Of a DNA stretch of 39,966 nt, positions 541-19,466 are shown piece after piece. Source of the DNA: Pseudomonadota bacterium (GTDB lineage Bacteria > Bdellovibrionota > FAC87 > UBA2466); NCBI GenBank assembly GCA_043767805.1, contig JAYUGC010000026.1:1-39966 (forward strand), read 5' to 3'. The notes under the pieces are model-generated. The model did not search any database and had not been told where the DNA came from. It saw only the letters and a program-made list of their open reading frames with translations. Numbering within the stretch: position 1 is the first letter of the stretch; every line of letters starts with the position of its first letter. A program made the translations under genes and the position numbers.

Positions 541-1335
541 CTAGCGGCGAAACGGGAGGGCGAGGAGCCAGCCGAGACGGGAAGGCTTGGCGTCGCGGTA
601 CTCGAGCAGGCCGATCTCCATGCCCTGATGGCCGTCCCGAGGCTGAGCGATATAGGTGCCGCAGAGGCGGTCCCAGATCGGCAAGTTGAAGCCGAAGTTG
701 GAGTTGGTCTCGTCCCTATGTACCGAATGATGCACCCGGTGCATGTCCGGCGTGACGAGGAACAAGCGGAGCACCCGATCGAGGCCGAAGGGCAGGGCCA
801 CGTTGCTGTGATTGAACATCGCGGTTCCGTTCAAGATAACCTCGAAGAGTACGACGGCGAAAGCGGGAGTGCCGAGCAAATAGATGGCGCTGAACTTAAT
901 CACCATGGAGATTACGATCTCCGCCGGGTGAAACCTGAGTCCCGTCGTGACGTCGATATCTCCGTCCGCGTGGTGCACTTGGTGCAGTCTCCAGAGCACG
1001 GGTAGGAAATGAAACATCACGTGCTGCAGATAAATGACGAAATCGAGGAGAATGACGGTGAGAAGCACCCGTGCCCAATAAGGCAGGCCAAATTGGTTCA
1101 GTAACCCTATCTGATGGCTTTCCACGTAATGGGCGAGCCAAATCCCGGTAAAAGGGAACAGAAAGCGAACGGCCGCCGAGTCCACGAAGACGAGCGCGAG
1201 ATTGCTCGTCCATCGCCTTGCCTTGGGAAGCCTCAACGGCCGCTTCGGCCTAAAAACTTCCCACACGGCCATGAAGCCGAGGATTAAGAAGAAGCACCCA
1301 AGGCGAACGGTCAGTTCAAGGCGGGGGTCCATCAT
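541..1335 (-). CDS. Sterol desaturase / fatty acid hydroxylase family membrane protein
   Basis: His boxes HVMFH, HQVHH, HRVHH, plus NSNFGFNLPIWDRLCGT. Start moved to MMDPRL (ATG 1335) because the longer ORF overlaps the rhodanese. Confidence 0.9.
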   Translation of the reverse strand: MMDPRLELTVRLGCFFLILGFMAVWEVFRPKRPLRLPKARRWTSNLALVFVDSAAVRFLFPFTGIWLAHYVESHQIGLLNQFGLPYWARVLLTVILLDFVIYLQHVMFHFLPVLWRLHQVHHADGDIDVTTGLRFHPAEIVISMVIKFSAIYLLGTPAFAVVLFEVILNGTAMFNHSNVALPFGLDRVLRLFLVTPDMHRVHHSVHRDETNSNFGFNLPIWDRLCGTYIAQPRDGHQGMEIGLLEYRDAKPSRLGWLLALPFRR

Positions 1336-1351
1336 GGTAGAGTCTCTTCCT

Positions 1352-1744
1352 ATGAGCTTGAAAAATCTATTGTATCGGACCTTTTTCAAGGACGCGAAGA
1401 AAGGGGAGAAGATCACCCCGAAGGACGCCTTCGCGCAAACGAAAAACGGAAAAGCCGTCCTGGTCGACGTCCGTGAGGCCGCGGAGCTCGAAAAGACGGG
1501 CATCGCCGAATCAGCCCAATGGATCGCGACCTCCGAAATCGCCGCGCAGTCGGGTGCCTTCAAAGCCTTCGTGGCGCGCCTCCCCAAAGATAAGAAAATC
1601 ATCGTTTACTGCGCCGCGGGCGTCCGGGCCGGCCGCTTCACCGAGTGGCTCGAGGCCAAAGGCTTCGCCGCGGCGAATCTCGGCGGGTTTAACGAATGGG
1701 CCAAAGCGCAGCTCCCCATTCAAAAATGGAACGGTCCCCAGTAG
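1352..1744 (+). CDS. Rhodanese-like domain protein
   Basis: LVDVRE...IIVYCAAGVRA...NLGGFNEW; start at ATG 1352 (MSLKN). Confidence 0.88.
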   Translation: MSLKNLLYRTFFKDAKKGEKITPKDAFAQTKNGKAVLVDVREAAELEKTGIAESAQWIATSEIAAQSGAFKAFVARLPKDKKIIVYCAAGVRAGRFTEWLEAKGFAAANLGGFNEWAKAQLPIQKWNGPQ

Positions 1745-1847: not shown

Positions 1848-2645
1848 ATGGCTCTCAAGCTCAGACACTCCTTTGAGTTCATGGACCTCACTTGGGTCCC
1901 CCAATCCATCCGGCTCACCATGAGGGAAGTTCTCGAGTGCGCCATGTCCGCGCCCTTCCGCGACTACTACGACTGGGTGGCGGGAGAAGTGGCCAAAGCC
2001 GCCAAGGAACGAGACTGCGACACCATCGTGGAACTGGGGGCGGGCACGGCTCCCCTCACACGGCGCCTCGCGGTCGATCCTGAGGCAAAGGGCAAAAGAC
2101 TTGTCGTCTGCGATCTAAATCCCGACGCGGCTACCTATCAGGCTCTCGAGAAGGAGTTCTCCGGACAAGTCGAGCCGGTATATGCCGGCGTGGACTTCGC
2201 TCGCGTGCCGTCCTTTGGCCGGAAAGCGTTACTGGTTTTGTCGGCCTCGTTTCATCACGTACGGGAAAAGGAACGCGTCGCGCTTTTAAGGAGCCTCTTT
2301 GGGAGCTCGCCCAATGTTCTCGTGTTCGAGCCGCTCCGCCGGAACCTATCCTCCGTGATTTATGCCTCTTTTACGTTCATGCCCGGCCTGATGGCCCCCG
2401 CGGTCTTCTTGAAGTTTCACGGGCTGCGCCGGGGAGGCCATCTCCGTCGTCTTTTCTGGTGTTGGCTCGTGCCGGTGGTTCCTTTCATGCTCGCGTGGGA
2501 CGGGATTGTCTCGTGCTTGCGAATGTGGACCGCTGAAGAATGGGGTGAGGCATTGGAAGGCGCGGCCGTCCAAGAGTCTCCCCACAAACAAATCGTCGAT
2601 TGCTTACCGGCCACTAAAGCTTCGTCCCGCAGCCGAGCCGCATAG
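1848..2645 (+). CDS. Class I SAM-dependent methyltransferase
   Basis: Motif I IVELGAGTA, VVCDLNP, SASFHH, VFEP; GGAG RBS upstream. Confidence 0.8.
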   Translation: MALKLRHSFEFMDLTWVPQSIRLTMREVLECAMSAPFRDYYDWVAGEVAKAAKERDCDTIVELGAGTAPLTRRLAVDPEAKGKRLVVCDLNPDAATYQALEKEFSGQVEPVYAGVDFARVPSFGRKALLVLSASFHHVREKERVALLRSLFGSSPNVLVFEPLRRNLSSVIYASFTFMPGLMAPAVFLKFHGLRRGGHLRRLFWCWLVPVVPFMLAWDGIVSCLRMWTAEEWGEALEGAAVQESPHKQIVDCLPATKASSRSRAA

Positions 2646-2841
2646 GCGTACACCGTAAGAATTCACGAGCCCTTGTCCATCGCGTCTTCAAGAAGTGCCC
2701 TGTCCAGCGAAGGCGCTCGTCTAGTCGGGGAGCCTCCGTATACCGCTTGTCTCCCTAATTCTCTTCCGGACTTAGCAAGCGTTTAGTATTTCCGAGCCTT
2801 CGCTTGACCGACGAGGCACGCCCGTTGCATTTCCATAGGGC

Positions 2842-3516
2842 ATGACTATTCAGCTTGCGACCAAGTCCGATGCGGTTCAGCCTTTTAAACGGCTCCTGGA
2901 GCGGTTCAGCGCTCTCGCCCAGAAGGAAGGGGTCTCGGTCGTGCCTTACAGCGACCTTGGCCCGATTCATTTTCAGGCCCTGCCTCTCGACCGCCAGCTG
3001 GCGACTCTCGATAATTTCTCCCGCTATGTGAGCGTCTGCGAAGAAGCGGCGGCAAGCGGCGAGTCCCTGAAAGAGAACGGCCAGGTGCTCTGGCGCATGT
3101 TCAATCGCATGGGATTCCGTCCGGTGAGTACTCTCATGGACGAGGTAACCAACGACATCGTGGTCGAAATGTACGACCGCAATTACGTGCAGATTTTCCG
3201 CAATCTCCGCTTTTTTGAGTTTTGCAGCTACACGATCGACGAATTGCTCTGCCGGCCGTTTTGGGAGCTCTTCCGCCGTGAAGAGTCTCTGACGCCGCAG
3301 ATGCTCGAGAAAACGGGAGCGCTCTTTGGTGGCCAGATTTGCGGCACCTACCAATGGGACGTGGGTATCCACGTCGTTGATGAGATCGAGAGTCCCTACA
3401 AGTACCGTGGGGTGGTTAAGTATAAGTTCATTTCGCCGCTCCATGACGCCTCTGGTCAGGTGGCGGCGATGATTAATACCTTCGAAATCATCTCTTACAC
3501 GCGCATGGTCCCTTAA
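2842..3516 (+). CDS. Stand-alone PAS-like domain protein with N-terminal helical extension
   Basis: DIVVEMYDRNYVQIFRNLRFFEFCSYTIDELLCRPFWELF matches the PAS core pattern; SPLHDASGQVAAMI resembles a PAC motif; no output domain. Confidence 0.6.
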   Translation: MTIQLATKSDAVQPFKRLLERFSALAQKEGVSVVPYSDLGPIHFQALPLDRQLATLDNFSRYVSVCEEAAASGESLKENGQVLWRMFNRMGFRPVSTLMDEVTNDIVVEMYDRNYVQIFRNLRFFEFCSYTIDELLCRPFWELFRREESLTPQMLEKTGALFGGQICGTYQWDVGIHVVDEIESPYKYRGVVKYKFISPLHDASGQVAAMINTFEIISYTRMVP

Positions 3517-3655
3517 GCCTCACGATCGCACTGGACTATAAACAATTTGGTGTTTATAAGACGGGTCAGAAGCTCGTTTTTGCCTAGGCGGTCGTTTGAA
3601 GGATGTCCACATACCTTACGTCGAATTGGAAGCCCGGGACGGCTCGGAGGCCCTG

Positions 3656-4060
3656 ATGCCCGTCTATGCCTTGCATCTGCGCTACGTTCCCGAGCTTGGG
3701 GTAGCCATCGCCGACACCCGGGATCAAATTGAGGAGCTGGCAGAAGGGGAAGGCCGAATTTTCGTGGAGCTAAAGCGCTGGCGGGGGCACCTTGAGGCGC
3801 TGGAGGGCCGGACGAAGGAACTCGCCCAGCGATCCGAGCGTCGTAGCCAGAGTATTTTAGCTTTGGTGGAGGAAGCCGAAAAAACAGCTTCCCTGATTAA
3901 GAAAATCTCCATGGAACTGGGCGAGGCTTCTTTAAACTTGTCAAAAGTCACGTGTTTGGTTGACCGAATTGCGAAAAGCAGCGACGATTTAATTCAAATT
4001 TTTAGCGCGCTGCGACTAGCGGAAACGTCCACTAGGTCTGAGTTTGGGAGTCATTCATGA
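3656..4060 (+). CDS. Hypothetical coiled-coil protein
   Basis: Heptad-like helical sequence; ATG 3656 preceded by GGAGG (ORF track start TTG 3596 is the alternative); ATGA overlap with the XRE gene. Confidence 0.55.
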   Translation: MPVYALHLRYVPELGVAIADTRDQIEELAEGEGRIFVELKRWRGHLEALEGRTKELAQRSERRSQSILALVEEAEKTASLIKKISMELGEASLNLSKVTCLVDRIAKSSDDLIQIFSALRLAETSTRSEFGSHS

Positions 4061-4371
4061 AAACTGCTAACGAAGAACAAGACATGCGCTGCCGAATTCT
4101 CGGCTCGTTTCTGAAAAACGCGCGAGAAAAGGCAGGGCTTACTCAGCAGGAAGTGGCTCAGCGCCTCTCCTACACGTCGGCCCAATTCGTCAGCAACTGG
4201 GAGCGGGGAGTGTCCTCGCCTCCGTTGGACTCGCTTCCCAAAATCTCCATACTCTTGAAGATCAGCCCTCGGTCGCTCATCGAGACTCTGCACAAGTACC
4301 AAGACGAGCTTCTGAGGCTTCAGAGAAAAGAGCTCATGGCAATCTTCCGTAAAAGGATGGGAACCCGGTAG
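4057..4371 (+). CDS. XRE/Cro-CI family helix-turn-helix regulator
   Basis: LKNAREKAGLTQQEVAQRLSYTSAQFVSNWERGVSSP is a classic HTH_3 pattern. Confidence 0.9.
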   Translation: MKTANEEQDMRCRILGSFLKNAREKAGLTQQEVAQRLSYTSAQFVSNWERGVSSPPLDSLPKISILLKISPRSLIETLHKYQDELLRLQRKELMAIFRKRMGTR

Positions 4372-4375
4372 GTCC

Positions 4376-5035
4376 TTACGCCGCTTTCTTGAGCTTGGTG
4401 GTAACACCCTGGCTCTGGGCGACGACGTCGGCCAGCATCGACTCGTATAGCGCCCGGCTTTGCGCCAAGTTTTTCAAGGTCAGTTCGGCCTCTTCGGGAG
4501 GCGCCGCGAGCATCCGGTTCATGCCTTCCTCGAAATGCCCTTTGTCTTCCATGGCGTGAACGCGGACGAAAGTCGCGCCTTCCCGTCCATAGGTTGCCTC
4601 GAGTCTTTTCACGACCGCCTTGCACTCCCGGACGGCCAAGCCTTCGAGCATCAGGGAGTAGCCGGCATGGGCAAAGGGACCGCACCGCTCGATCCAGTAG
4701 TACTGCGTCTGCCAGATGAGCGCGGTGTCCCGCAGCTCGGGGAGCGTCTTTAGATCGTAACCAATGTGCTTGAGATCCCGCGCGGCCAGCTCGTCATGGC
4801 CCACTTCTTCGCGCAAATGCTTGAGTACGTCGCGGTGGAGCTTGGGGCGCTGAGGCCCGAGCTTACTCGCCACCAGGCAAAGAAAATTCGTCGTGTGCTG
4901 CACGAGATAATAGGATTGCGCGAGCCACAAGGCATAGGCGGCTTTATCCTCCCACGGAAAGTTGCGGAAGGACTCGCCCAAGGGCTTGATGTGCTCTTCG
5001 AAGGCATTCACGAGACGCTTTTTGTTCAGATCCAC
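4376..5035 (-). CDS. Heme-oxygenase-like diiron (iron-containing redox enzyme, PqqC/CADD-like) protein
   Basis: HLREEVGH, MLEGLA and VHAMEDKGH supply E/H/E/H/D/H ligand candidates; GTG start with AAGGAG RBS. Confidence 0.8.
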   Translation of the reverse strand: MDLNKKRLVNAFEEHIKPLGESFRNFPWEDKAAYALWLAQSYYLVQHTTNFLCLVASKLGPQRPKLHRDVLKHLREEVGHDELAARDLKHIGYDLKTLPELRDTALIWQTQYYWIERCGPFAHAGYSLMLEGLAVRECKAVVKRLEATYGREGATFVRVHAMEDKGHFEEGMNRMLAAPPEEAELTLKNLAQSRALYESMLADVVAQSQGVTTKLKKAA

Positions 5036-5045
5036 GGGGGCTCCT

Positions 5046-5747
5046 TTAAGCGGCCTGCTTTAGGCCGGGCTCTACGACAATCCGAGTCGTATCGGTTCGT
5101 TGATTCCAGAAAGCTTCGACGAGATGGCTCACGTCCGCGCTGGGGTGAGGGCGCATCGCCTGCGGGAAAAAAGCGATCTGCTTGCAGGGCGTGTTGTAAA
5201 TCCGCCGGACGTCGCCCACGACGACGGCTCCCTGTTCCTGTACGAGCCGATCGACGCCGACGTCGACACGCGCGATGCCCACGGCCGCGTCCACGTTCCA
5301 TTCCTGGGCAAGCTTTACGCCGAGCCCGATCATGACGGAGGCGAGGGAGACGCCGATTTTGGGGGAGCGCCAGGCTTTGAGGACCGAGTACAGCTCCATG
5401 GAGAGCAGTGTGTTTGCGCCCTGCGCGTGAAGGCTCTTCAAGTAATCGTCAGAAAAGTAACGGGAGAAATAGGAATGCGCGCGGGTACCGACGCAACCGG
5501 TGTCAAAAAAGGAATGGGCGTGTAACGCTACGATTTCCCCTTGGGACTCTAGAAACCCGACTACCGTTTGGCGCAAGAAATCATCGGGGTTCGGAGCTTT
5601 GTCCGTGCGATTTTTCTTGAGCACTTGCGTCCAGAAATCGAGCCAAAAACGATAGGCGCGGTCGTGGAGTTCCGTTTGCCGATACCCCGGAGGCGGGGTG
5701 CCCGGAACTTGGAAGTACTTTAGAGATCGCGTCAGTAAGCTGGACAT
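5046..5747 (-). CDS. Putative GNAT-fold acyltransferase (LuxI/FeeM-like)
   Basis: HDRAYRFW helix, NPDDFLRQ, strands VVGFLE..EIVALH, SMELYSVLKAWR (GNAT motif-A-like), then helix and AVGIARVD; 10 bp upstream of the diiron gene. Confidence 0.5.
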   Translation of the reverse strand: MSSLLTRSLKYFQVPGTPPPGYRQTELHDRAYRFWLDFWTQVLKKNRTDKAPNPDDFLRQTVVGFLESQGEIVALHAHSFFDTGCVGTRAHSYFSRYFSDDYLKSLHAQGANTLLSMELYSVLKAWRSPKIGVSLASVMIGLGVKLAQEWNVDAAVGIARVDVGVDRLVQEQGAVVVGDVRRIYNTPCKQIAFFPQAMRPHPSADVSHLVEAFWNQRTDTTRIVVEPGLKQAA

Positions 5748-5929
5748 GTTTTTTATAAAGTAATTTTGTTTAGCGACTCTTGAATTGTCGGAAAAATTTC
5801 GGCGGATCCTTAGTCGTTTTTAAGAGCCAAAAGAGTTAAATAGTCTTAAAGTCCTGATTTGGGTTACCGACGGTGTTGACGTAACTCAACCGATTTTGTT
5901 TAGTGAGGGGCGTCAAAAATTCGAGCGGC

Positions 5930-6298
5930 ATGCCTGAAAAACAACTCATTTTAGTCGTCAAGGACGAGTCGGCCATTCGGAATCTGCTTCAAGCCATCCT
6001 GGAGGCCGAGGGCTTTGACGTCCGTCTGGCTGCGGATGGCGAAAAAGGCCTGCAGCAGGCCCGTGAGCTCGGCCCCGACCTCGTTCTACTGGATCTCAAC
6101 TTGCCGCGGGCCGACGGACTCGAAGTCTGCCGCAAGATGCGGGGCTCGGAGAGAACGAAGCGGCTGCCCATTCTCTACGTGACGGGCGGCGGAGACGAGC
6201 ACGACAGGTATGCCGGTCTCCGCGCGGGTGCCAATGCTTATCTAGCAAAGCCGTTCAATCGCGCTGAGCTCATGGCCAGCGTTCGTTCCGCTCTCTGA
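5930..6298 (+). CDS. Single-domain response regulator (CheY-like receiver)
   Basis: ILVVKDE, LVLLDLNLP, YVTG, LAKPF; no output domain; ATG 5930. Confidence 0.85.
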   Translation: MPEKQLILVVKDESAIRNLLQAILEAEGFDVRLAADGEKGLQQARELGPDLVLLDLNLPRADGLEVCRKMRGSERTKRLPILYVTGGGDEHDRYAGLRAGANAYLAKPFNRAELMASVRSAL

Positions 6299-6396
6299 AA
6301 AGCTTTAGCCTGAACGCACTGTGTTAGGCGCGGATTAAATCCTCGTGAGGTCACTGTAAGACTGAGTTAGAGTGACGGCTTCTTCCGGAGAATGGC

Positions 6397-9156
6397 ATGT
6401 TAAACCGCGATGTGGCTGCGGCTTTCGTGATTTCGGCGGCCGCTCTCATCTTTCAGTTCACACTCACGCGCGTGCTCTCGGTGCTCTATTGGCAGCACCT
6501 CGTTTACGCCATTTTAACGACATCGCTCTTGGGATTCGCCGCGAGCGGGACGGCGCTGAAAATCTCGAAGCGACTCCAAGGACTCACCACGACGGAGCTC
6601 GTCCGTTTTTGTTTTGCGGGCTTCGCGCTATCGAGCGTCCTGGGTGTATGGCTGGCGAGTTGGCTGGCGGGCGATTTCTTCACCTTGGGAGCCGCGAGTT
6701 TCACCGCTTCCAATGGCGTGCGCCTGGCGCTTTCCTACTTCTTTTCCGCCGTGCCTTTTTTCTTCTTCGGGTTACTCGTTCTGGGCCTCTTCTCGAAGAG
6801 TCCCGGACAGTCAGGCGTGCTTTACGCGGGCAACTTACTCGGCTCGGGGCTAGGCTCGCTCCTCTATCTAGGTCTCATGCGGCCCCTCGGTGCGTTGGGC
6901 GTGCTCCGGTGGTTGATCTTCCTTCCTTCGGCGCTGGCCGTCTTGTTTCCCGGTAAAGATCGAACCCCCGTTTCGAAAAGCCTCGCCTTTGCGCTTTTGG
7001 CCGCTCTCGTCGCGACGGGCTTTGTCGACATTTCCCCCGATCGGCACAAGCAGTATTGGACGCTCAGCTCCGATAAAGTCGTCGAGAAGAGTGAGTGGAA
7101 CGCCATTTCCCGGGTGGATGTCATCCGGGTTCCCAAAGGACGGCAGCGCCACATTCTGATAGATGGCGACGCGCAGACGGCTCTCGTGCCTCCCGCGGAC
7201 CGAGTGGAGAGAGAGGTTCGCTTTCGCATGGCGGAAGTTGGGTCTGAAGGCTTTCGGTTTGCGACCACGGGCTGGACGGAAGTCAGCGCGCTTTTCACGC
7301 TCGAGCTCTCGGGGCGCGAGACGGCGCGTAACGTGGTGCTTCAGCTCACTACGGGTGGCAATTCCTATCTGCAAAACGTCTCGGTTCCGGCCGGCCGGCC
7401 CGTCTCGTTTTTTGCGAGCTGGCGCGCGGAGGACAAGGCGAGCCGGGTTGCGGTGGACTTCGGACAGTTTGAGATGGCGAGCTGGCCCTCCTTCGCGCTT
7501 GGTCCAGAGACTACGATTTCGGTACAAGACGGAGCTCTGCTGAAGGCGATGCGCGTTTGGGATAAGGCACTCGATCGAGCTGAGCTCTATGCGTTTTCTC
7601 CGAACTACGGCGGCTATGAGCGGGTCGTGAGCCATGACCTCTTCAAGAAGGAAACGGGACGCGCCGAGGATCGGGTGCTCGTCATCGGAAATGGCGGCGG
7701 AGCGGACTCGGTCGCCGCGGCGAGGGCGGGGGCCATGCACATCACCGCCGTTGAAGTGAATCCCACGAGCTACTCGTTAGTGAAGGACGTCTACCGCGAC
7801 TACCTCGGGGATTTTTTCGCGCGCTCCAACGTCGATTTGAAGCTTGAGGACGGACGAAGCTTCGTGCGGCGGTCCACGGAGCGCTTCGATTTGATTGCTC
7901 TGGTCGGCGTCGACAGTTTGGCCGCGGCCAATTCCGGCGCGTACGTTTTAGCGGAGAGTTTTCTCTATACAGCGGAAGCTCTCGATGATTACTGGGCTCA
8001 TTTGAGCACCGAAGGAAAGCTTCAGATTAGCCGGTGGCACTTTCCGAAAACGCCTCGCGAGACACTTAGAATTTTCAGCATGGCGTACGAAAGTTTGGCC
8101 AGAAACGGGGTGGCCGATCCCACGCGCCATCTCGCCATGATTGCGCCAAAGGGCGCGGATCAATTGGACGGTTGTTTTGCGACTCTGCTCGTCTCTAAGG
8201 CCCCGTTTAGCGCGGCTTCTCTACCGGTACTGGCCTCCCTTGACGTCCTGTTTCACCCGCTAGTGGACGCCGGGCCTCGTCCCAATGCCTTTCATCGTTT
8301 CATTGCGTCGGCCAGAGACGGCAAAGCGGAAGCTTTTTATCAGGCCTATCCTTTTAACGTGAAGCCGGTCACCGACGATGCCCCCTTCTTTTTCCACTAC
8401 GGGAAGTTTTCTCAGCTCCTTCGCCCTTACGAGGTGGGCGTGGCTGGCTTCGACTCTATCCTCGGCCGCTGGCCGTTCTTTGTGCTCGCGGCACTCGTCC
8501 TGCAATGCCTACTCGGCGGCGTGCTCTTGGTGCTGCCTTTGGCCCGGCATTTGGAAAAAGGGAAGCCCTCGGGTTTCGCGTACTTCTCCTGTCTGGGCAT
8601 CGGGTTCATGTTCGTGGAGATGTTTCTCGTCCAAAAGCTGGTGCTCATGCTCGGGCATCCCATGTACTCCTTGGGGGTAACGCTGCCATCGCTTCTGGGA
8701 GCCGCGGCGCTCGGCAGTTATCTCTCGCGTGGCATTCGATTGGACGACCTTAAGACCCGTCTCGGGCTCTTTGCCGCCATTGCCGCCGTCATTTGTATGC
8801 TCGGGATAGCTTTGCCGTCCATTTTGGAAGCGACTCTGCCGCTTTCCTTTAGCGCGCGCGTGTGGGTTTGCGCCCTGATCACGTTTCCCGTGGGCATACT
8901 GCTTGGCATGCCCTTTCCGTCTGGACTGAGGGCGTTACCTCCGTCTGCGTTGTGTTTCGCGTGGGGAGTCAATGGAGCGTTCGGCGTTTTGGCTTCCGTG
9001 GTGGCGGTGATACTTGCCATGCAATTTGGCTTTTCGTTCCTGCTTATTCTTTCCGCTTTTCTCTACGCGAGCGCGGCGCTGGTCGCCCCCGTGAAGCAGA
9101 GCGTTTCGTTGAGTGAGCCGGCGCGCCCGTCATCTCTGAAGGAAGTCCTTCGTTAA
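6397..9156 (+). CDS. Membrane-bound spermidine-synthase-like SAM-binding protein
   Basis: N-terminal TM bundle (LYAGNLLGSGLG), WNAISRVDV, VLVIGNGGG, AVEVNP, EDGRSF, LYTAEA, VTDDAPFF, C-terminal TM bundle (GMPFPSGL, AWGVNG). Confidence 0.82.
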   Translation: MLNRDVAAAFVISAAALIFQFTLTRVLSVLYWQHLVYAILTTSLLGFAASGTALKISKRLQGLTTTELVRFCFAGFALSSVLGVWLASWLAGDFFTLGAASFTASNGVRLALSYFFSAVPFFFFGLLVLGLFSKSPGQSGVLYAGNLLGSGLGSLLYLGLMRPLGALGVLRWLIFLPSALAVLFPGKDRTPVSKSLAFALLAALVATGFVDISPDRHKQYWTLSSDKVVEKSEWNAISRVDVIRVPKGRQRHILIDGDAQTALVPPADRVEREVRFRMAEVGSEGFRFATTGWTEVSALFTLELSGRETARNVVLQLTTGGNSYLQNVSVPAGRPVSFFASWRAEDKASRVAVDFGQFEMASWPSFALGPETTISVQDGALLKAMRVWDKALDRAELYAFSPNYGGYERVVSHDLFKKETGRAEDRVLVIGNGGGADSVAAARAGAMHITAVEVNPTSYSLVKDVYRDYLGDFFARSNVDLKLEDGRSFVRRSTERFDLIALVGVDSLAAANSGAYVLAESFLYTAEALDDYWAHLSTEGKLQISRWHFPKTPRETLRIFSMAYESLARNGVADPTRHLAMIAPKGADQLDGCFATLLVSKAPFSAASLPVLASLDVLFHPLVDAGPRPNAFHRFIASARDGKAEAFYQAYPFNVKPVTDDAPFFFHYGKFSQLLRPYEVGVAGFDSILGRWPFFVLAALVLQCLLGGVLLVLPLARHLEKGKPSGFAYFSCLGIGFMFVEMFLVQKLVLMLGHPMYSLGVTLPSLLGAAALGSYLSRGIRLDDLKTRLGLFAAIAAVICMLGIALPSILEATLPLSFSARVWVCALITFPVGILLGMPFPSGLRALPPSALCFAWGVNGAFGVLASVVAVILAMQFGFSFLLILSAFLYASAALVAPVKQSVSLSEPARPSSLKEVLR

Positions 9157-10205
9157 ACGATCGCGAACTCGGTGAGCACGCCGTAGTGATCGGAGAGACG
9201 GGCGGGACCTTTGCCGGCTCCGCAGAGCGGCTGGTCGAAAATGACTTGGGACTCGGTCGGCACCAGCCGCGACGACTGGCTCGCGAAGATGTAATCGATG
9301 CGCGCATCGGGGCTGTTGCTGAAGTGGCCGCTCTTCTTGTACGGATTTCGTGAGTCGTCGGTGTGGCCCGGTGCCCCCCTCGCTCCGACTACTTCGAAAG
9401 TGTCTTCGAAATCGAGCTCTCCGCCTGGAGCGAAAAGCCCGTGCTCATAGGTCGCCCGAGTCGCTCCCACTTCTCTCGGAGCGGCATTCAAATCGACGCC
9501 TAGTAGAGCGGACTCCGAGGTGCGGGTCTTTTGGATCCACTGCGCGAGCTCCGCCGCTTGCTGCCCGCGTCGCGCGCCTTGGCTCAGATCGTAGTTTCCT
9601 TTTCTCGAATCGAAATCCACGGCGCCGAGGTGGCTGTTGTAGACGTCGATCCAGCCGAGAGACGGCACTTGAACGCTCGCTCTGAGCGCGCCCTTGGCGA
9701 CGAAGGCCTCGTCGGGCCGGGTCGAAGTGGAGAAGGCGAAAGCATCGAAACGTGGGCCGAGCGGATAGCGGGAAAAGATCTGTAGGCCATTTCCCATGGT
9801 CTTTTTCATTCTGTCGATGAGCAAGGAGCTCGCGGCCACCATGGCTAGGGCGCTTCCGCTCAAGGCGGAGACCACGCCGAGGTTGGTGCCGCCCGGAAAA
9901 AGGGAGGCGAGGCAAAGAGGCAGAAGGCCCGTCAGTGCTCCCGGCGATTGACCGGGAAGAGTGAAGCTTAGCTCGGGAATCTGAGAAGCCTCGTAGGGAT
10001 ACCCGTGCTTCGAGAAAGCGGCGCGAAGCTGGTTTCGTAGCTGGGAGTCCCAGACTTCCTGACAAAGCACGATGTCGGCGCCGGTGGCGGCCACCAGCCC
10101 TGGAACCAGCGCCGCTCGCTCGTCGATTTCCGGCGCGAGCGATACGCGGAAGGGAAGCCGAAGGAGCCAGGTATTGAGCGTTAGAACGCGAAGCTTCCGT
10201 CTCAT
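9153..10205 (-). CDS. Endonuclease/exonuclease/phosphatase (sphingomyelinase-like) protein
   Basis: LTLNTW, LCQEVW, GLQIFSRYP, KGAL, NSHL, GVDLNA, RIDYIF, SDHYGV; ATG 10205 with GGAGGG RBS. Confidence 0.85.
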   Translation of the reverse strand: MRRKLRVLTLNTWLLRLPFRVSLAPEIDERAALVPGLVAATGADIVLCQEVWDSQLRNQLRAAFSKHGYPYEASQIPELSFTLPGQSPGALTGLLPLCLASLFPGGTNLGVVSALSGSALAMVAASSLLIDRMKKTMGNGLQIFSRYPLGPRFDAFAFSTSTRPDEAFVAKGALRASVQVPSLGWIDVYNSHLGAVDFDSRKGNYDLSQGARRGQQAAELAQWIQKTRTSESALLGVDLNAAPREVGATRATYEHGLFAPGGELDFEDTFEVVGARGAPGHTDDSRNPYKKSGHFSNSPDARIDYIFASQSSRLVPTESQVIFDQPLCGAGKGPARLSDHYGVLTEFAIV

Positions 10206-10340: not shown

Positions 10341-11171
10341 CTATTCCTTCAGAACGACGTTGTTGTAGCCGCGTTCGTGGATGAGACGGTCGAAGTACCC
10401 GACGATGCCGTCGCGACGGTGCAGGATGCCGCGCTTTTCGTCGTCCGAGAGAAATCCAGTCACTTCCCTGAGGTCGTTCCAGTGAAGCCCGCGTAAACGA
10501 TCAAGAGTCTGTTCGCGGACGTGATCGACGGGAGCGTCGTTACGGTAATACGGGTAATAGGTCATCGAAAGACCGAGGTGGGACTGCCCGCTCGCGGACC
10601 AATCCATGAAGACAGGGCGGCGCCGGCCATCGACCCAGTGTTTTCCAATCAGCAAATTGTTGTGAATGGAGTCGGGGTTCTGCAAGAGAACCGTGAGCAC
10701 GCGGTTGTCGGAGAGGAGCGCTGTTTTCGAGATGCCCCATTCGCGTTGCGGGGTATCGAGTAAGTAATGAAGGTCGTCGACGTAGTGAATGAGCGCGCCT
10801 TCCGGATAGGAAACGCCGTTAATCTGAAAATTGTAGCGGTAAGACACGGGCGCGATGTAGTCCATGCCTAGCTTACGGTTCACGTGATAGGCGACGAACT
10901 CGCCCGTCGCGCGCGCCCACCCCTCGCTGTCCCCGTACGGGCGGGGCTTAAAAGCGGTAAGCCGCTCTCTACCGGTTACCGAATCGCGGATGACGACTTT
11001 CAAGACTTCGTGCCGGTTGCCGTGACCGCCGAAGGCCTGGCCCCAGATGGCGTTGCCGTTGAACAAATCATGGGTGATGGCGCCGTGGGCGCCGTTGATC
11101 TGGTCGAAGTAGGTTTCGCAACCCGCGGAAGCGAATGAGGAAAGGAGCACTAAAAACAGGCTGAAACGCAT
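10341..11171 (-). CDS. Secreted or lipoprotein atypical kinase-like protein (PI3/4-kinase / Fam20-like fold)
   Basis: Signal peptide ending SAGC; AFKP, EFVAY..NRKLG...AP, GALIHY, NPDSIHNNLL, VFMDWS. Confidence 0.55.
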   Translation of the reverse strand: MRFSLFLVLLSSFASAGCETYFDQINGAHGAITHDLFNGNAIWGQAFGGHGNRHEVLKVVIRDSVTGRERLTAFKPRPYGDSEGWARATGEFVAYHVNRKLGMDYIAPVSYRYNFQINGVSYPEGALIHYVDDLHYLLDTPQREWGISKTALLSDNRVLTVLLQNPDSIHNNLLIGKHWVDGRRRPVFMDWSASGQSHLGLSMTYYPYYRNDAPVDHVREQTLDRLRGLHWNDLREVTGFLSDDEKRGILHRRDGIVGYFDRLIHERGYNNVVLKE

Positions 11172-11303
11172 GACTTAAATACCCTTCAAAGACCCCGAAG
11201 TCTTGAATCGTGCGGGGAATTCTCCTCCTAACCCTCCGAAAGCGGTGACAATTCTCGGCTCAGCGGCGTTTAGGTGCGCCGCGTGTTCTACCGATAAGCG
11301 TTC

Positions 11304-11771
11304 ATGCGAATCAAGGGCTATTTCTTCGTGTGGCTCGTCCTGTGCGGGGTCTCCTTGGGAGCCAGCTCCAAACGGTGGATCAACAGCGACCAATGCACCC
11401 AACTCTGTGGGGCCATCGAGTCCTGCGCCGACAAGATTCAGCGCCCCGAGCTCTCGCGGTTGCTCTGTCACGTGGCGGCCTGTGAGGTAGGAAAGCTTTG
11501 CGGGAAGAAAGAGATCCGCTCGCCGAACGGACTTTTTCACGGGCCGTATCAGTTCACCAACGCGACTTGGAAGTCGGTTTGTCAGCCTCTCTTCAAGCAG
11601 CAGGGTCTCAAAGGATGCGCGGGCAAGAAGTCCATCTACGACACCTGCTGCACCACGGCCTGCGCGAGCAGCCTCATCGCCGAAGAGATCAACGGCGGCA
11701 TTCGCAACTGGCCGCAGTGTGGTCCGCTCGCCAAACGAGAAGTCGCCTCCGAGGAAAAATCTAAAAAGTAA
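11304..11771 (+). CDS. Secreted Cys-rich Rpf-like lytic transglycosylase
   Basis: VAACE, NGLFHGPYQFTNATW and GIRNWPQC parallel the Rpf motifs AQCES, NGYYGGLQF..TW and GAWP.C; signal peptide. Confidence 0.65.
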   Translation: MRIKGYFFVWLVLCGVSLGASSKRWINSDQCTQLCGAIESCADKIQRPELSRLLCHVAACEVGKLCGKKEIRSPNGLFHGPYQFTNATWKSVCQPLFKQQGLKGCAGKKSIYDTCCTTACASSLIAEEINGGIRNWPQCGPLAKREVASEEKSKK

Positions 11772-11906
11772 TCCGTCACGCGTTTTTTGCGGTCGCCGCT
11801 TACGCGCGTAGTCAGCGGAAAGTCCCCGAACTTCTTGAGGGGCGCGATCGGATTTGATACCCCCTTGGCATCCTGGGTTGACCCAGACATAGGGTGAGGG
11901 GGAACG

Positions 11907-13076
11907 ATGCGCACTTTCCGGATCTTTCTGGCGGCAGTTTTGGCGACTTGGCTTTCGGTGGGGGCGGTGCCCGCCCGAGGTGTGGCGCTCACTCCGGGGC
12001 TTTACGATAACGAGACCGGCTCGCCTCTCTTGCCCGTCATTCTCGCCACCAAGAAGACCTTGGATATCGCCATCTACACCATGACCGACACGGCGGTCTT
12101 GCAGGCTTTGCATCAAGCGTTGGCGCGAAAGATTCGTGTCCGGGTCATCAAGGAACCGGAGCCGGTTGGCGATACGCCTTGCCGCGTGTTCGCCGCGCCC
12201 ATCGCGAGCGAGGAGCCCAGCTGCGGAGAACAACGCAAATTAAAGGATGCGATTATCGCGTCCGGCGGCTCTTACGTTCCCTTCGAGAAAAAAGCGTTCT
12301 GTCCGGATCCCACGAAATATTGTTTCCTCCATGGCAAGCTGGTCGTCGCCGATCAGCAGGCGGCTTTGGTCAGCACCGGAAACTTCGACGGCAGCAACCT
12401 TTGCGATCCGGTGGAACATCCGAAGCGCTGTAACCGCGACTACACTTATTTGACGGCGGACCCCATCACGGTCCGAGCGCTCGCGACCATCTTCGAGGGC
12501 GATCTCGGCCGTCGCAGCTACAACCTGCCGGCAATTCTGAGCGGATCGGTCGCTCAAAGGCTCACCGTGAGCCCGTACTCGTTGGCGCCGCTCGTTCAGT
12601 TCATTCGGTCGGCGAAGGCCAATATCCGCATTGCGAACCAGTACCTTTGGGAGCCGCATTTGAATCAGGCCTTGGTGGACGCGGCGAAGCGGGGGGTGCG
12701 CATCGACCTCCTGGTGGCGAGCGCTTGCGCGTTTCAGCCGCCGACGCCGAAAGATCAGGAGCGCGTAAAGGAAGTTTTCTCGGCGTTCGATGGCGCCGGC
12801 ATCCGCAGCCGCATGTTCACTTCGTCTCAACTCATCAAAGGAGTGCCGGGTTACCTGCATGCGAAGGCAATCTTGGTGGACAATCAGCGCGCCTGGGTCG
12901 GCTCGGTGAACGGATCGAGCACGGCGTTCAACAATAACCGAGAGTTCGGGCTTTTCGTCGAAGATCGCCCGTCGATTGTTGGACTCGCTAGTCGCTTCGA
13001 CGCGGATTTCGCTTCGGCGGGAACGGAAAGTTGGCAGGAGTCGTTGCGTTGCTTGAAGGACAAGGCCGCGCCTTAA
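11907..13076 (+). CDS. Secreted phospholipase D family protein
   Basis: Two HKD motifs (HGKLVVAD..STGN; HAKAILVD..GSVN); signal peptide. Confidence 0.9.
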   Translation: MRTFRIFLAAVLATWLSVGAVPARGVALTPGLYDNETGSPLLPVILATKKTLDIAIYTMTDTAVLQALHQALARKIRVRVIKEPEPVGDTPCRVFAAPIASEEPSCGEQRKLKDAIIASGGSYVPFEKKAFCPDPTKYCFLHGKLVVADQQAALVSTGNFDGSNLCDPVEHPKRCNRDYTYLTADPITVRALATIFEGDLGRRSYNLPAILSGSVAQRLTVSPYSLAPLVQFIRSAKANIRIANQYLWEPHLNQALVDAAKRGVRIDLLVASACAFQPPTPKDQERVKEVFSAFDGAGIRSRMFTSSQLIKGVPGYLHAKAILVDNQRAWVGSVNGSSTAFNNNREFGLFVEDRPSIVGLASRFDADFASAGTESWQESLRCLKDKAAP

Positions 13077-13143
13077 GCGTAGGACAACTTGCATTGACCG
13101 AGTTTTGCGCGGCGATATAGTACGGCTTTACGGACAAACTGAA

Positions 13144-14793
13144 ATGCGTCGCCTGACCGGTCAATTACGACCCCTCGTGGAGAGTGCCGCCCTGGCAGTC
13201 GTCTACTATTGGGTGGGGAGACTTGGCGTCTTGACGGCCATCCCTCCTGGAGTCGCGACCGCCATCTGGCCCGCTTCGGGGGTGGCGCTGGCGGCGGTCG
13301 TGCTCAGAGGAAGTGCCATCGCGCCCGGCATATGGTTGGGCTCGCTCGTTTTGAATTTTCAGATCTTGGTGGCCGCGGGGACCGTGCCGCCGCTTGCGGC
13401 GTTCGCGGCAGCCGCCGGCATCGCGCTTGGTTCGTCGCTCCAGGCGTTACTTGCGTCGTGGCTCATTCACCGGATCGTCGGAACCCAGCACTTTCTGGAA
13501 ACGGCCCGCCATGCTTTGCAATTTCTCGGAGTCGCGGCCCTCAGTTGTCTGATTGCGGCGAGTCTCGGGGTACTGAGCCTTTGCGCGTCGGGCGCCGGCT
13601 CTTGTCATATCCTAAACGAAGGGTGGGTGACTTGGTGGCTCGGTGATTTGGTGGGCGTCTTGGTGATGACGCCTCTTCTTATCGTCTGGTCGGGCAACCA
13701 ATTTAAAACCCGGTGGGGCATGCGGCGGGCTTTGGAAGCCTTGGTCTCTCTCCTCTTTTGTTTCTTGGTAGGGGAGCTCGTATTCGGGGTGCCCTTGCGG
13801 GAGGGGACGCACTACGCGGGCGCTTACGCCTTTTTTCCCGTCATCATGTGGGCGGCCTTTCGGTTGGGACCCATCGGCGGCGTGTCTGCGCTTTTCGTGA
13901 CCGCGGTGCTCGCCGTTTGGGGCACGGTGCTTGGCTCGAGTCAGTTTTCGAGCGCAATCCTCAATACGGCCCTTCTGTCCGTGCAAATTTTCGTCGCCCT
14001 TGCGGCGGTCATGAGCCTTGTTCTCGGCGCGGTGCTTTTCGAAAGAAAGCGCACGGAGGAAGAACGCGCGGGTCACTTCGAGGAGGAGAAACGGCTTCGT
14101 CTGGAGCTTGCCCGCTCAAATAGCGATTTGGAACGTTTCGCTCAGCTCGCGTCTCACGATTTGCGCGAGCCGGTTCGCTCCGTCATTTTGCATCTGGGGC
14201 TACTGGAGAGCGCGGCAAAAGGGGCGTTGAGCGAGACCGCGGAGACCAATCTGCGGTTTGCTTACGACGGCGCGCAGCGCATGCAGCGTCTCATCGAGGC
14301 GCTCCTCGAGTTCTCTCGGGTGAGGGCGCAGCCGCGGGCCTTTGGGCAGGTGGCCTGTGATGAAGTAGTTGGAGAGGTGCTTTGGAGCTTAAAGGCGGCC
14401 ATCGCGGAATCCGAGACGCAGGTGAAAGCCGAGCCGCTTCCCACCGTGGCGGGCGATCCGGTGCAGATTGGGCAGCTCTTTCAAAATCTCCTAGCTAACG
14501 GCATCAAGTACCGGGCGCGCGATCATCGGACGGAAATTCGCGTGGCCGCCGAGAAGATCGGCAAAGAGTGGCTATTTCGGGTGAGCGACAACGGCATCGG
14601 CTTCGAGATGAAGTACGCGACGCAGATTTTTGAGATCTTCGAGCGCCTGCACCCGGCGTCGCGCATCGAGGGCTCGGGACTGGGACTGTCGCTTTGTAAG
14701 AGCATCGTGGAGCGTCACGGCGGGCGAATCTGGGCCGAGTCCGAAGTAGGCCGTGGCTCGACTTTCTTCTTTACTCTTCCTGCCCTTGGTTGA
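13144..14793 (+). CDS. MASE1-domain sensor histidine kinase
   Basis: IWPASG and WWLGD MASE1 motifs; ASHDLREP H-box; QNLLANGIKY, DNGIG, GSGLGL. Confidence 0.9.
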   Translation: MRRLTGQLRPLVESAALAVVYYWVGRLGVLTAIPPGVATAIWPASGVALAAVVLRGSAIAPGIWLGSLVLNFQILVAAGTVPPLAAFAAAAGIALGSSLQALLASWLIHRIVGTQHFLETARHALQFLGVAALSCLIAASLGVLSLCASGAGSCHILNEGWVTWWLGDLVGVLVMTPLLIVWSGNQFKTRWGMRRALEALVSLLFCFLVGELVFGVPLREGTHYAGAYAFFPVIMWAAFRLGPIGGVSALFVTAVLAVWGTVLGSSQFSSAILNTALLSVQIFVALAAVMSLVLGAVLFERKRTEEERAGHFEEEKRLRLELARSNSDLERFAQLASHDLREPVRSVILHLGLLESAAKGALSETAETNLRFAYDGAQRMQRLIEALLEFSRVRAQPRAFGQVACDEVVGEVLWSLKAAIAESETQVKAEPLPTVAGDPVQIGQLFQNLLANGIKYRARDHRTEIRVAAEKIGKEWLFRVSDNGIGFEMKYATQIFEIFERLHPASRIEGSGLGLSLCKSIVERHGGRIWAESEVGRGSTFFFTLPALG

Positions 14794-17218: not shown

Positions 17219-18627
17219 AGTTCGCTGTTTTTCTGCTCGCTCTCTGTTTGCCGGCTCTCGCCACCGATGCGACCCTCATCCGTCGCTCGCTCATTAAAAT
17301 AACCTCGACCCAGTCGGGGGCTTCCGCCGAGTTAAGAGGCAGCGGGCTTCTCTTTAACCGAAACGGGAAGCGGTACGTGCTGACTTCCGACCATGTGGTC
17401 GCCCACACCAACGGACTGTTCGGCTCGCACCAGGCGACGAGCTCGGTGACGAACGAGACTTGCAAGCTGAAATTTCTCGCGGCCGAATGGGCCAACGGTT
17501 TGGCTTTACTCGAGGTTGAAAACGACACGAATCCCGCCGACGCAATTCCCTATGCGGAGCTCGCGGTGGCGCCCACGTCAAAAGCAGGCGACGCGGCTTC
17601 CTTTTACGGCTACCCGTTCGAGTCGAGCGATCTGACGGAGGAAACGTTCGCGAAGCTTCTTAATTTTGCGGCCCCGGTGCCTTACTTCGTGGGACCGAGA
17701 AGCCTCTTGGAGCTGGAAGCCGCCATCGGAGAGTTCGGGATGTCGGGCGGCGCTGCGTTCTCGGCGGCCGGAGATTTCCTGGGCGTCATCGCTTATCAGA
17801 AAATTCTGGATACGAGCCTTCAGCCGCAGCCCAATCGCGTGTATGCGATTCCCAGAGACACCGTCTTGCCGTGGGTCGATCACTATTTCGCAACGACGAC
17901 CAATTACCGTCCCTATTTTTCCGAGCCTTGGTTCGCGCAAGGGGACCCGAGACAGCTGCTTCTCACCAATGACGGTTTGATGCTCATGTTCCGTAACGTG
18001 CAGGGGCAGTTTCGCTTGGCCTTGGGCCACGTGCAGCAGCTGATTATCCTAAAAGATGGCCCCACGATTCCTTACGTCGACAAGCGCGGGTTCATGACGG
18101 CCTTTCGAAAATTCATCAAGGAAGAGCCGTGGCGTCCTTCCGAGTTCGCGGTCTTCGAGCGCACGATGGGAATCCCCGTCGTGAGAAAGATCCAATACCC
18201 CGCCGAAGTTTTGACGAGCTTTGACGACCCTAAGACCTCGGTCATCCTCTTGCTCGGAGAAAAACACGAAGAGCGCTACGACCGGGTGAAGCCCGCGTTC
18301 GATAAGTTCGAGCTGGGTCTCGCGGACCTCAATAAGGCGATGGCAGGGCAAACGGCGCCGCAGTGGACGGCGCTCGCGAAAGACCTCGCTTCGCTCTCCG
18401 CTAATTTGAAAACCATGCCCGCGAAACCGAATAACCCAGGCGCCGCGGGAGCCAACGAGTTCTTCTCGACCGATTGGGTGAGCCCGGTCATGTTTCAAAT
18501 CGAAGCGGATACCGGCCATGCGGGCTGGAAAGAAGCCGATGCCATCGCGCCCGCGCGGGTCAAAGACGTGAGAGGGAAGCTCCAAGAGCTCGGGGCCTCC
18601 TTCAAAGCCATCGTCGTAAGTCCCTAA
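17215..18627 (+). CDS. Secreted trypsin-like (S1) serine protease
   Basis: GSGLLF, VLTSDHVV (His), GLALLE, YGYP, FGMSGG (Ser); ATGA overlap with the upstream gene. Confidence 0.78.
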   Translation: MKFAVFLLALCLPALATDATLIRRSLIKITSTQSGASAELRGSGLLFNRNGKRYVLTSDHVVAHTNGLFGSHQATSSVTNETCKLKFLAAEWANGLALLEVENDTNPADAIPYAELAVAPTSKAGDAASFYGYPFESSDLTEETFAKLLNFAAPVPYFVGPRSLLELEAAIGEFGMSGGAAFSAAGDFLGVIAYQKILDTSLQPQPNRVYAIPRDTVLPWVDHYFATTTNYRPYFSEPWFAQGDPRQLLLTNDGLMLMFRNVQGQFRLALGHVQQLIILKDGPTIPYVDKRGFMTAFRKFIKEEPWRPSEFAVFERTMGIPVVRKIQYPAEVLTSFDDPKTSVILLLGEKHEERYDRVKPAFDKFELGLADLNKAMAGQTAPQWTALAKDLASLSANLKTMPAKPNNPGAAGANEFFSTDWVSPVMFQIEADTGHAGWKEADAIAPARVKDVRGKLQELGASFKAIVVSP

Positions 18628-18794
18628 TTAGGGACCTGAAACCGTTTCGAAACATTTGGGGGCTAGCTTCTTATGTAGGAGGCCTAGCCATGCACCCCCC
18701 CGTAAAGCCTCGAAAGCAGGCTGGAAACGGTGCGCCAAATTCCTCTCAATCCCGCTCTCCAAAATGTCGAAAAGGTGGGGAAGGGGAGGCGCCC

Positions 18795-19466
18795 GTGGAT
18801 ACCGTTTTGCTGCTGGAAGACAATGAGACTTTGGCCAAGCATTTGAAGGCTGGGCTGGAGCTCGCCAATTTCAAAGTCACCCTCGCGACGACTTTGTCGG
18901 AAGCGCGAAAATGCCTTTTCAAGGAAAAATTTTCGATACTGCTCTTCGATGTGAATCTTCCCGACGGCAACGGCTTTGAGCTCTGTCAGGAAGTCATCGA
19001 AGCCCAGCTCGACGCTCCGGTCATCTTTCTCACCGCGAAGACGGACGAAGAGTCCGCGGTCGAAGGCCTTTCCCTCGGCGCGAAGGATTACGTACGTAAG
19101 CCGTTTCAGATCCGCGAGCTCGTCGCCCGCATGCACGCGCAAATTGCCCGTAGCGGTAAGGCGGGCAAGCAGGCCGAGTTCGAAGGCGTGGTCATCGACA
19201 TGGCCGAGCGCCGCGCCCGGTACCGGGAAAAAGAGCTCTCTCTGAGCCGCGGTGAGTTTGACGTGTTTTCTTATCTCGTTCGCCACGGCGGAAACCTCGT
19301 CGATCGCGAAAAGTGTCTCCAGGAAATCGACTCCGCGAGCGAAATGAATAGCCGCTCTCTCGACGTCGTCGTTTCTCGCATCCGCAAGAAGCTCGTGGGC
19401 GCGGGAGCTAAAGACGTCGTCATCGAGTCGGAGTACGGCATCGGTTATCGGCTGGTGAAAAAATGA
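18795..19466 (+). CDS. OmpR-family response regulator
   Basis: LLLEDN, FDVNLPDGNG, FLTA, KPF, winged helix RSLDVVVSRIRKKL...YGIGY; GTG 18795 with GGGGAGG RBS. Confidence 0.92.
   Translation: MDTVLLLEDNETLAKHLKAGLELANFKVTLATTLSEARKCLFKEKFSILLFDVNLPDGNGFELCQEVIEAQLDAPVIFLTAKTDEESAVEGLSLGAKDYVRKPFQIRELVARMHAQIARSGKAGKQAEFEGVVIDMAERRARYREKELSLSRGEFDVFSYLVRHGGNLVDREKCLQEIDSASEMNSRSLDVVVSRIRKKLVGAGAKDVVIESEYGIGYRLVKK

Follow-up and report, generated by a model that had tools for sequence, protein, structure and literature searches.

A conserved Bdellovibrionota gene module combining a GNAT-fold protein, a heme-oxygenase-like diiron oxidase, and PAS and XRE proteins: a candidate signalling system

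Genes of the module and their products

The DNA analysed here, referred to as the window, is a stretch of 39,966 nucleotides (contig JAYUGC010000026.1 of GenBank assembly GCA_043767805.1) from a bacterium of the Bdellovibrionota lineage FAC87, UBA2466. It includes two convergent groups of genes, four of which recur together in other members of the phylum and can be considered a module made of a biosynthetic pair and a regulatory pair. The minus strand codes for a 233-amino-acid (aa) GNAT-fold acyltransferase of an unnamed family, the putative synthase (5046-5747), and, separated from it by 10 bp, for a 219-aa diiron oxidase of the heme-oxygenase-like type (HDO; 4376-5035). The plus strand codes for a 224-aa putative ligand sensor with a PAS fold (2842-3516), a 154-aa coiled-coil protein (3596-4060), and a 104-aa XRE-type helix-turn-helix regulator, the putative DNA-binding output (4057-4371). 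The coiled-coil open reading frame (ORF) overlaps the start of the XRE gene by 4 bp, and the stop codons of the XRE and HDO genes (4371 and 4376) are 4 bp apart. An earlier reading of the bare sequence, the original prediction, had described these genes as a synthase, a tailoring oxidase, a receptor, and a regulator of a possible quorum-sensing-like circuit; the ORF listing of the window bears out its coordinates for all five ORFs as well as the 10-bp spacing and the 4-bp convergence.

The assignment of the 219-aa protein as a diiron oxidase is upheld by a family match together with a complete set of metal ligands. The protein matches PF14518 (Haem_oxygenas_2) with 53 bits, the curated Pfam cut-off being 28.9, and 31 homologues encoded next to GNAT genes all keep the residues E77, H80, E131, H160, D164, and H167. 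These six residues correspond to what we take to be the usual three-histidine, three-carboxylate ligand set of heme-oxygenase-like diiron enzymes. A profile search of the PDB retrieved 3dde (1.4e-18), MboA (2.3e-8), and, marginally, UndA (0.028). As no characterised HDO is close to the 219-aa protein, its reaction cannot be assigned. According to passages of PMC13185094, HDO substrates are mostly amino-acid-derived and several of the enzymes hold the substrate carboxylate at Fe1. A term search of an HDO review (PMC13108848) returned no acyltransferase, GNAT, or N-acyl, and the pairing with a GNAT goes unmentioned there.

For the 233-aa protein, neither Pfam nor NCBIfam gives a family at E≤0.1, a Pfam scan of 31 of its relatives at E≤1 gave only chance-level matches to unrelated families, and searches of the PDB sequences with the protein or its family profile returned chance matches only. 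Ten close relatives were found among 5.8 billion clustered proteins, and a profile search widens the family to 913 cluster representatives (E≤1e-3). The AlphaFold2 model, built on the alignment of 10 sequences, has a GNAT-like order of strands and helices (predicted local distance difference test score, pLDDT, 84.3; predicted template-modelling score 0.85). Its top Foldseek matches, with E values around 1e-7 and template-modelling scores of 0.5-0.65, are headed by the acyl-homoserine lactone (AHL) synthase RpaI (E 2.9e-7), with FeeM in second place, followed by EsaI and BjaI. VIA-align gave Z≥5 for 984 of the 999 chains aligned to the model, and all 50 shown are GNAT-fold enzymes. Structure prediction and Foldseek had been named beforehand as the check on this protein, and the GNAT fold that they found can be regarded as settled at the level of the model.

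The sub-type of GNAT is less clear. The best VIA Z-score, 15.7, belongs to an agmatine N-acetyltransferase (root-mean-square deviation 2.7, 176 residues), and agmatine and arylalkylamine N-acetyltransferases as a group score 15.0-15.7 over about 175 residues, whereas RpaI, BjaI, and FeeM score 13.5-14.1 over longer alignments of 177-200 residues (14.1 for RpaI, with 196 residues aligned, and 13.5 for FeeM). Since other GNATs score as high or higher, the structural likeness to AHL synthases is not specific, and the Z-scores obtained with the model would not separate a long-chain acyl synthase from an acetyltransferase. In the ESM Atlas the nearest clusters are unnamed ones from Bdellovibrionota and the nearest named ones are FeeM/Acetyltransf_5 (score 0.93). 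When PF21926 was run against the genome in six frames, it matched C147 and C101 only, and not the GNAT of the module. The original description as a LuxI/FeeM-like acyltransferase stands as far as the fold and the top Foldseek ranks of the LuxI-type proteins and FeeM are concerned. The corresponding Pfam models are unmatched, and the best Z-scores belong to N-acetyltransferases. Among 40 members of the family the best-kept residues are W35 (40/40), Y93 and W214 (38 each), and R59 and G173 (37 each), followed by R160 (36), R127 (34), and E118 (31).

No Pfam family, and hence no Pfam PAS model, matches the 224-aa protein at E≤0.1, and the NCBIfam search was likewise empty; 11 close relatives were found. 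Its predicted structure (pLDDT 89.2) starts with some 100 residues of helical structure, after which comes a PAS fold with five strands (residues ~100-221). Foldseek matched it to the NifL PAS domain and to LOV domains (E 5e-5, probability 1.00), and in a VIA-wide search independent of Foldseek the top 50 were all PAS domains, with moderate Z-scores of 6.0-8.3. The list of the latter search includes the PAS domain of RpfR bound to the fatty-acid signal BDSF (6dgj, Z 6.4). The Atlas points to PAS_9 clusters at a score of 0.95. The protein had been taken for a PAS-only one: structure prediction supports the PAS fold, and the helical domain in front of it (residues ~1-100) removes the "only".

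The 104-aa protein matches HTH_3 with 47.1 bits (cut-off 23; 2.5e-12 in Pfam), as expected of the XRE regulator it had been called, and is a member of a recognisable subfamily of XRE proteins that has the motif QF[IV]SNWERG..PP. A prediction of the complex of the PAS and XRE proteins from alignments A2 and A6 gave a score of 0.00 (mark 0.32), which says nothing either way.

The coiled-coil ORF, which the original prediction had listed among the neighbouring plus-strand genes, lies outside the conserved core. It has only sub-threshold matches to coiled-coil families in Pfam and NCBIfam, and no homologue of it was found in the 40 related loci described below. Among the genomes of relatives it is found in 2 of 41, its own included, and only here does it separate the PAS gene from the XRE gene. 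In the other genome, a metagenome-assembled genome (MAG) of the same genus, G171, there is a weak match (E 3.7e-4) in the N-terminal region of a histidine kinase whose gene comes before the PAS gene. Judged by this distribution, the gene is probably a lineage-specific accessory gene or remnant.

Linkage, fusions, and protein ends across Bdellovibrionota

GNAT and PAS profiles were used to search a sample of 401 Bdellovibrionota genomes, of which they matched 127 and 134, respectively. Both families were found in 108 genomes, the GNAT alone in 19, the PAS protein alone in 26, and neither in 248; with a broader model, two of the genomes with PAS only turned out to carry a GNAT gene and an HDO gene beside the PAS gene. 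Related genomes are not independent samples, and no weight is given to a p-value for this co-occurrence. About one third of the genomes sampled from the phylum have the module, as do 46 of the 53 genomes of the Bdellovibrio family. The MAG of the same genus is labelled Pseudobdellovibrionaceae, and one homologue comes from a complete genome of a Bdellovibrio sp. A pattern scan of metagenome contigs gave two short loci only, and that of genome contigs one true relative and a doubtful fragment in an Acidobacteriaceae MAG.

Linkage was already apparent in a tblastn comparison of the 29 best loci besides that of the window: with 1.5 kb of flanking DNA on each GNAT locus, HDO was found in 23, PAS in 21, and XRE in 13. 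It was then mapped, by means of hidden Markov models built from the loci themselves, in a set of 40 loci of about 16 kb each (L035-L074), which represent 37 genomes and 15 families and include 41 GNAT genes. An HDO gene lies within 300 bp of 30 of the 41 GNAT genes (13 of 15 families), and if desaturase-family genes (PF00487) are counted as well, 35 GNAT genes have an adjacent oxidase of one kind or the other. A PAS gene is found within 3 kb of 35 GNAT genes, in 15 of 15 families, and an XRE gene within the same distance of 22, in 13 families. All four genes are present for 20 of the 41 GNAT genes, again in 13 families. Six GNAT genes lack an adjacent oxidase: two Bdellovibrio solos, one fusion to a flavin adenine dinucleotide (FAD) oxidase, one with an HDO gene 1.6 kb off, and two accompanied by PAS only. 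Unsupervised clustering of all neighbours revealed no further family in more than 7 loci, and no transporter, downstream catabolic gene, or second O-acyltransferase that is conserved in the module across the 40 loci.

The order of the genes varies: the PAS gene can be convergent, divergent, or co-directional with the GNAT gene, and the 18 PAS-XRE pairs, all co-directional and mostly with gaps of -17 to +96 bp, are arranged PAS-to-XRE in 11 cases and XRE-to-PAS in 7. That linkage is kept in spite of rearrangement argues for a shared function, and because the clustering recurs in 15 of 15 families sampled it is far beyond chance. Co-occurrence of the families in other genomes had been set beforehand as a point on which the original prediction could fail, and both the 108 genomes with the two families and the 20 four-gene loci speak strongly in its favour.

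Gene fusions are found on each side of the module. A 469-aa ORF in L059 consists of a GNAT part (residues 22-159, 30% identity to the protein of the window, E 6e-13) and a PF14518 domain (271-433). In L105 a 361-aa ORF includes an HTH_3 domain at residues 12-63, with residues 8-71 being 39% identical to the XRE protein of the window, and a region, residues 109-308, that shares 27% identity with the PAS protein (E 6e-31). By these fusions the module falls into two pairs, one biosynthetic and one regulatory. A search for longer fused forms of the PAS family (at least 448 aa) found none, a weak negative; the 361-aa XRE-PAS fusion itself fell below that length. A 770-aa ORF, L058:6065-8377(-), joins a GNAT family domain to an FAD_binding_4 (GlcD-like) oxidase and defines a third kind of oxidase partner.

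The second kind is the PF00487 desaturase-family membrane protein, found in 8 of the 40 loci, in four of them beside a GNAT gene with no HDO gene nearby and in four together with HDO. Its NCBIfam matches, all below the cut-offs, are to the arginine gamma-hydroxylase GntB (up to 1.3e-40) and the Delta5 desaturase DesA (1.5e-16). The idea that this partner proves a long acyl chain was dropped, the similarity to GntB being equal or better, and this similarity means that the oxidation could fall on the amino-acid part.

Copies of the module and of its parts were also observed. In L070 (G140:C11:26000-45000) two complete GNAT-HDO-PAS-XRE modules are found in tandem, at 5705-8040 and 10893-13228, about 5 kb apart, and the genome has four GNAT matches in total. 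Bdellovibrio genomes have up to 6 PAS matches versus up to 3 GNAT matches, and PAS copies that outnumber the GNAT can be likened to receptor "solos". A different arrangement is that of the Bdellovibrio locus L045 (G131:C1), in which an S-adenosylmethionine-dependent methyltransferase-like gene (9289-10095, plus strand) comes right after the HDO gene and is followed by two tandem PAS paralogues; across the 40 loci, a homologue of this methyltransferase was seen just once more.

The enzymes of the module share a feature at their C-terminal ends. In the window the two enzymes of the module end in KQAA and KKAA (C-terminal codons of the GNAT gene at 5046-5060 and of the HDO gene at 4376-4390), and the usual ending of the module enzymes is K-x-A-A. 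Two alanines are found at the end of 22 of 42 GNAT proteins, 20 of 33 HDO proteins, and 5 of 8 desaturase-family partners, as compared to 1 of 37 PAS proteins, none of 24 XRE proteins, and 7 of 478 other ORFs of the same loci. Among 148 full-length representatives of the GNAT family, 65 end in two alanines and 107 in one alanine at least. The single transfer-messenger RNA (tmRNA) gene of the genome (G000:C3:18284-18636) codes for the tag GNNYQLAA, and such tails direct degradation by ClpXP in E. coli. By analogy, the Ala-Ala ending may be a built-in degradation tail common to three unrelated enzyme families that belong to one pathway.

The genes that flank the module in the window code for a fatty-acid hydroxylase and a rhodanese, for a methyltransferase that scores weakly, for a receiver with a single domain, and for a membrane protein of 919 aa. 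The original prediction had suggested that the methyltransferase and the receiver may belong to the module; homologues of the two are found in only 2 and 4 of the 40 related loci, respectively, and none was found for the hydroxylase, the rhodanese, or the 919-aa protein, so all five were rejected as members. The hydroxylase (541-1602, minus strand) is OlsE-like (NF052566, E 1e-24, below the cut-off) and the methyltransferase (1848-2645, plus strand) has a faint NCBIfam similarity to OlsG (E 1.3e-5). Located just upstream of the module, these two genes hint at ornithine-lipid modification and are not conserved with it. The 919-aa protein (6397-9156, plus strand) is polytopic and has a weak spermidine-synthase-like methyltransferase-fold core at residues ~423-510. 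A MASE1-domain histidine kinase (13105-14793, plus strand) and a pair consisting of an OmpR-type regulator and a HAMP kinase (18474-20911) have the appearance of common signalling genes with no relation to the module, and the remainder of the window resembles ordinary chromosome. Positions 2700-5950 were matched by four DNA runs of sediment metagenomes, all from a single study, and by none of RNA among the runs listed.

Possible functions of the module

These results lead us to propose that the module consists of a biosynthetic unit and of a regulatory unit that reads, most likely, the product of the former, an interpretation that we consider evenly poised. The GNAT would acylate or acetylate an amino acid or an amine, and the adjacent diiron oxidase would oxidise the amino-acid or the acyl part, the two steps taking place in either order. 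In some lineages a membrane desaturase/hydroxylase or an FAD oxidase would replace or join the diiron oxidase. The most economical guess for the product is an N-acylated, oxidised amino acid. The PAS protein would bind a small ligand, most likely this product, and act with or through the XRE protein to control transcription. A signalling role of the module is plausible from its gene content, and taken as a whole the original interpretation is partly supported.

Several observations weigh against this proposal. It draws on genome comparison and structure models, and the 40 loci were hand-picked for taxonomic spread from the matches listed, with related genomes again not being independent. On the synthase side, amine N-acetyltransferases match the model at least as well as AHL synthases by Z-score (15.7 versus 14.1), so that the transferred group could simply be acetyl. 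The Pfam models of LuxI (PF00765) and FeeM (PF21926) do not match the 233-aa protein, and an hhalign comparison with six FeeM-family proteins of relatives was weak (probability 14%, E 0.002), though helix 1 through strand 5 are aligned in register and the conserved glutamate of strand 4 is matched. On the regulatory side, an XRE gene accompanies only 22 of the 41 GNAT genes within 3 kb. Of 18 solo PAS paralogues, only 6 have one as a neighbour and the other 12 are found among unrelated genes, so that PAS may act through outputs besides XRE. In the intergenic regions of the window no repeat is conspicuous as a possible operator: scans of 5748-5902, 2646-2841, and 3517-3595 for inverted repeats, promoters, and terminators gave nothing above the shuffled background.

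The strong form of the original prediction, and at the same time a sub-case of our proposal, is genuine signalling between cells in the manner of quorum sensing. Cells would release the product, its level would rise with their density or within prey that they have invaded, and PAS/XRE would sense it and feed back positively on the synthase operon. The conservation of synthase and receptor as a unit, including the duplication of four-gene modules in tandem in L070, is consistent with such a system, as is the excess of receptor paralogues over synthases; furthermore, if the Ala-Ala ends act like the tmRNA tag, the output of signal would follow current synthesis. However, no transporter is conserved in the module, what is known of the system is its genomic layout, and a pathway-specific regulator that senses the product inside the cell would have the same genomic appearance. 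We therefore hold the cell-to-cell version as possible and no firmer than tentative. The same caution applies to its most specific statement, speculative at this point, that Bdellovibrionota have a hitherto unrecognised autoinducer system of their own, in which an oxidised N-acylated amino-acid signal is made by a new LuxI/FeeM-like GNAT together with a diiron oxidase, short-lived synthases with Ala-Ala tails, and is received by a new kind of receptor made of PAS and XRE proteins, along with many PAS solos. If this were true, the output of signal would track the current phase of the predatory life cycle.

The direction of information could also be the reverse, with PAS/XRE sensing an external amine or amino acid, for example one derived from the prey, and inducing a GNAT and an oxidase that modify it for catabolism or detoxification. 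XRE regulators often repress inducible operons, the best Z-scores of the GNAT model are those to amine N-acetyltransferases, and the oxidase partner differs by lineage (HDO, desaturase/hydroxylase family, or FAD oxidase), all of which would fit. Nevertheless, the module has no conserved transporter or gene for downstream catabolism, the fusion of GNAT and oxidase suits a committed two-step synthesis, and the HDOs characterised so far are biosynthetic according to passages of PMC13185094; we regard a catabolic or detoxifying module as unlikely. Remodelling of membrane aminolipids, in which the GNAT would make an OlsB-like lyso-aminolipid to be modified by the oxidase under PAS/XRE as local regulator, is suggested by the OlsE-like hydroxylase and faintly OlsG-like methyltransferase in the window and by the desaturase-family partner of 8 of 40 loci, but is improbable given that the hydroxylase and the methyltransferase recur in 0 and 2 of 40 loci, that a separate Acetyltransf_5 (OlsB-type) gene is located elsewhere in the genome (C101), that no second O-acyltransferase is conserved in the module, and that GntB, an arginine hydroxylase, is likewise among the matches of the desaturase-family partner (1.3e-40).

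Comparison with known systems

The module had no earlier description in the literature covered by our narrow searches, and we know of no self-made signal described for Bdellovibrio and its relatives. The life cycle of Bdellovibrio, with its attack, entry, growth, septation, and release, calls for tight timing, and the proposed combination of a biosynthetic and a regulatory unit provides a concrete, clonable candidate that pairs synthase-like with sensor-like proteins. The analysis also defines two sizeable protein families without a Pfam model, the GNAT and the PAS protein, extends the heme-oxygenase-like oxidases by a branch linked to GNAT, and points to a C-terminal Ala-Ala tail common to three unrelated enzyme families of one pathway.

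As in LuxI/LuxR systems, the gene for a GNAT-fold protein, here a putative synthase, is found beside that for a transcription regulator that would respond to a ligand, and RpaI, EsaI, BjaI, TofI, and LasI are among the top structural matches of the 233-aa protein, the alignments with RpaI and BjaI being the longest (196-200 of 233 residues). Unlike LuxI, the module protein has no PF00765 match; its putative receptor consists of a PAS protein and a separate XRE protein and is unrelated to LuxR, and an obligatory oxidase partner would add an oxidation step. The resemblance to FeeM and other N-acyl amino acid synthases (PF21926, PF13444) lies in the GNAT fold, the second rank in Foldseek, and the neighbourhood in the Atlas, whereas the Pfam models of these synthases are unmatched and the hhalign probability is the low value given above. 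With 3dde, of unknown function, the mangotoxin acetylenase MboA, and UndA, the 219-aa protein has in common the membership in PF14518 and the six-residue diiron site.

On the receptor side, the PAS fold serves RpfR as the binding site of a self-made small signal, BDSF; in RpfR this domain is fused to GGDEF-EAL, whereas the PAS protein of the module stands alone with its N-terminal helical domain and has an XRE partner. In LuxR solos of the PAS4 type (PluR, PauR) a PAS fold that binds a self-made signal is fused to a LuxR-type helix-turn-helix domain. The RNPP regulators (Rgg, PlcR, PrgX) use an XRE-type helix-turn-helix domain as the DNA-binding output of a signal receptor, and this domain comes first in them as it does in the XRE-PAS fusion of L105. 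They differ from the module in that its sensor is a PAS rather than a TPR domain, its ligand is presumably not a peptide, and its parts are usually separate proteins.

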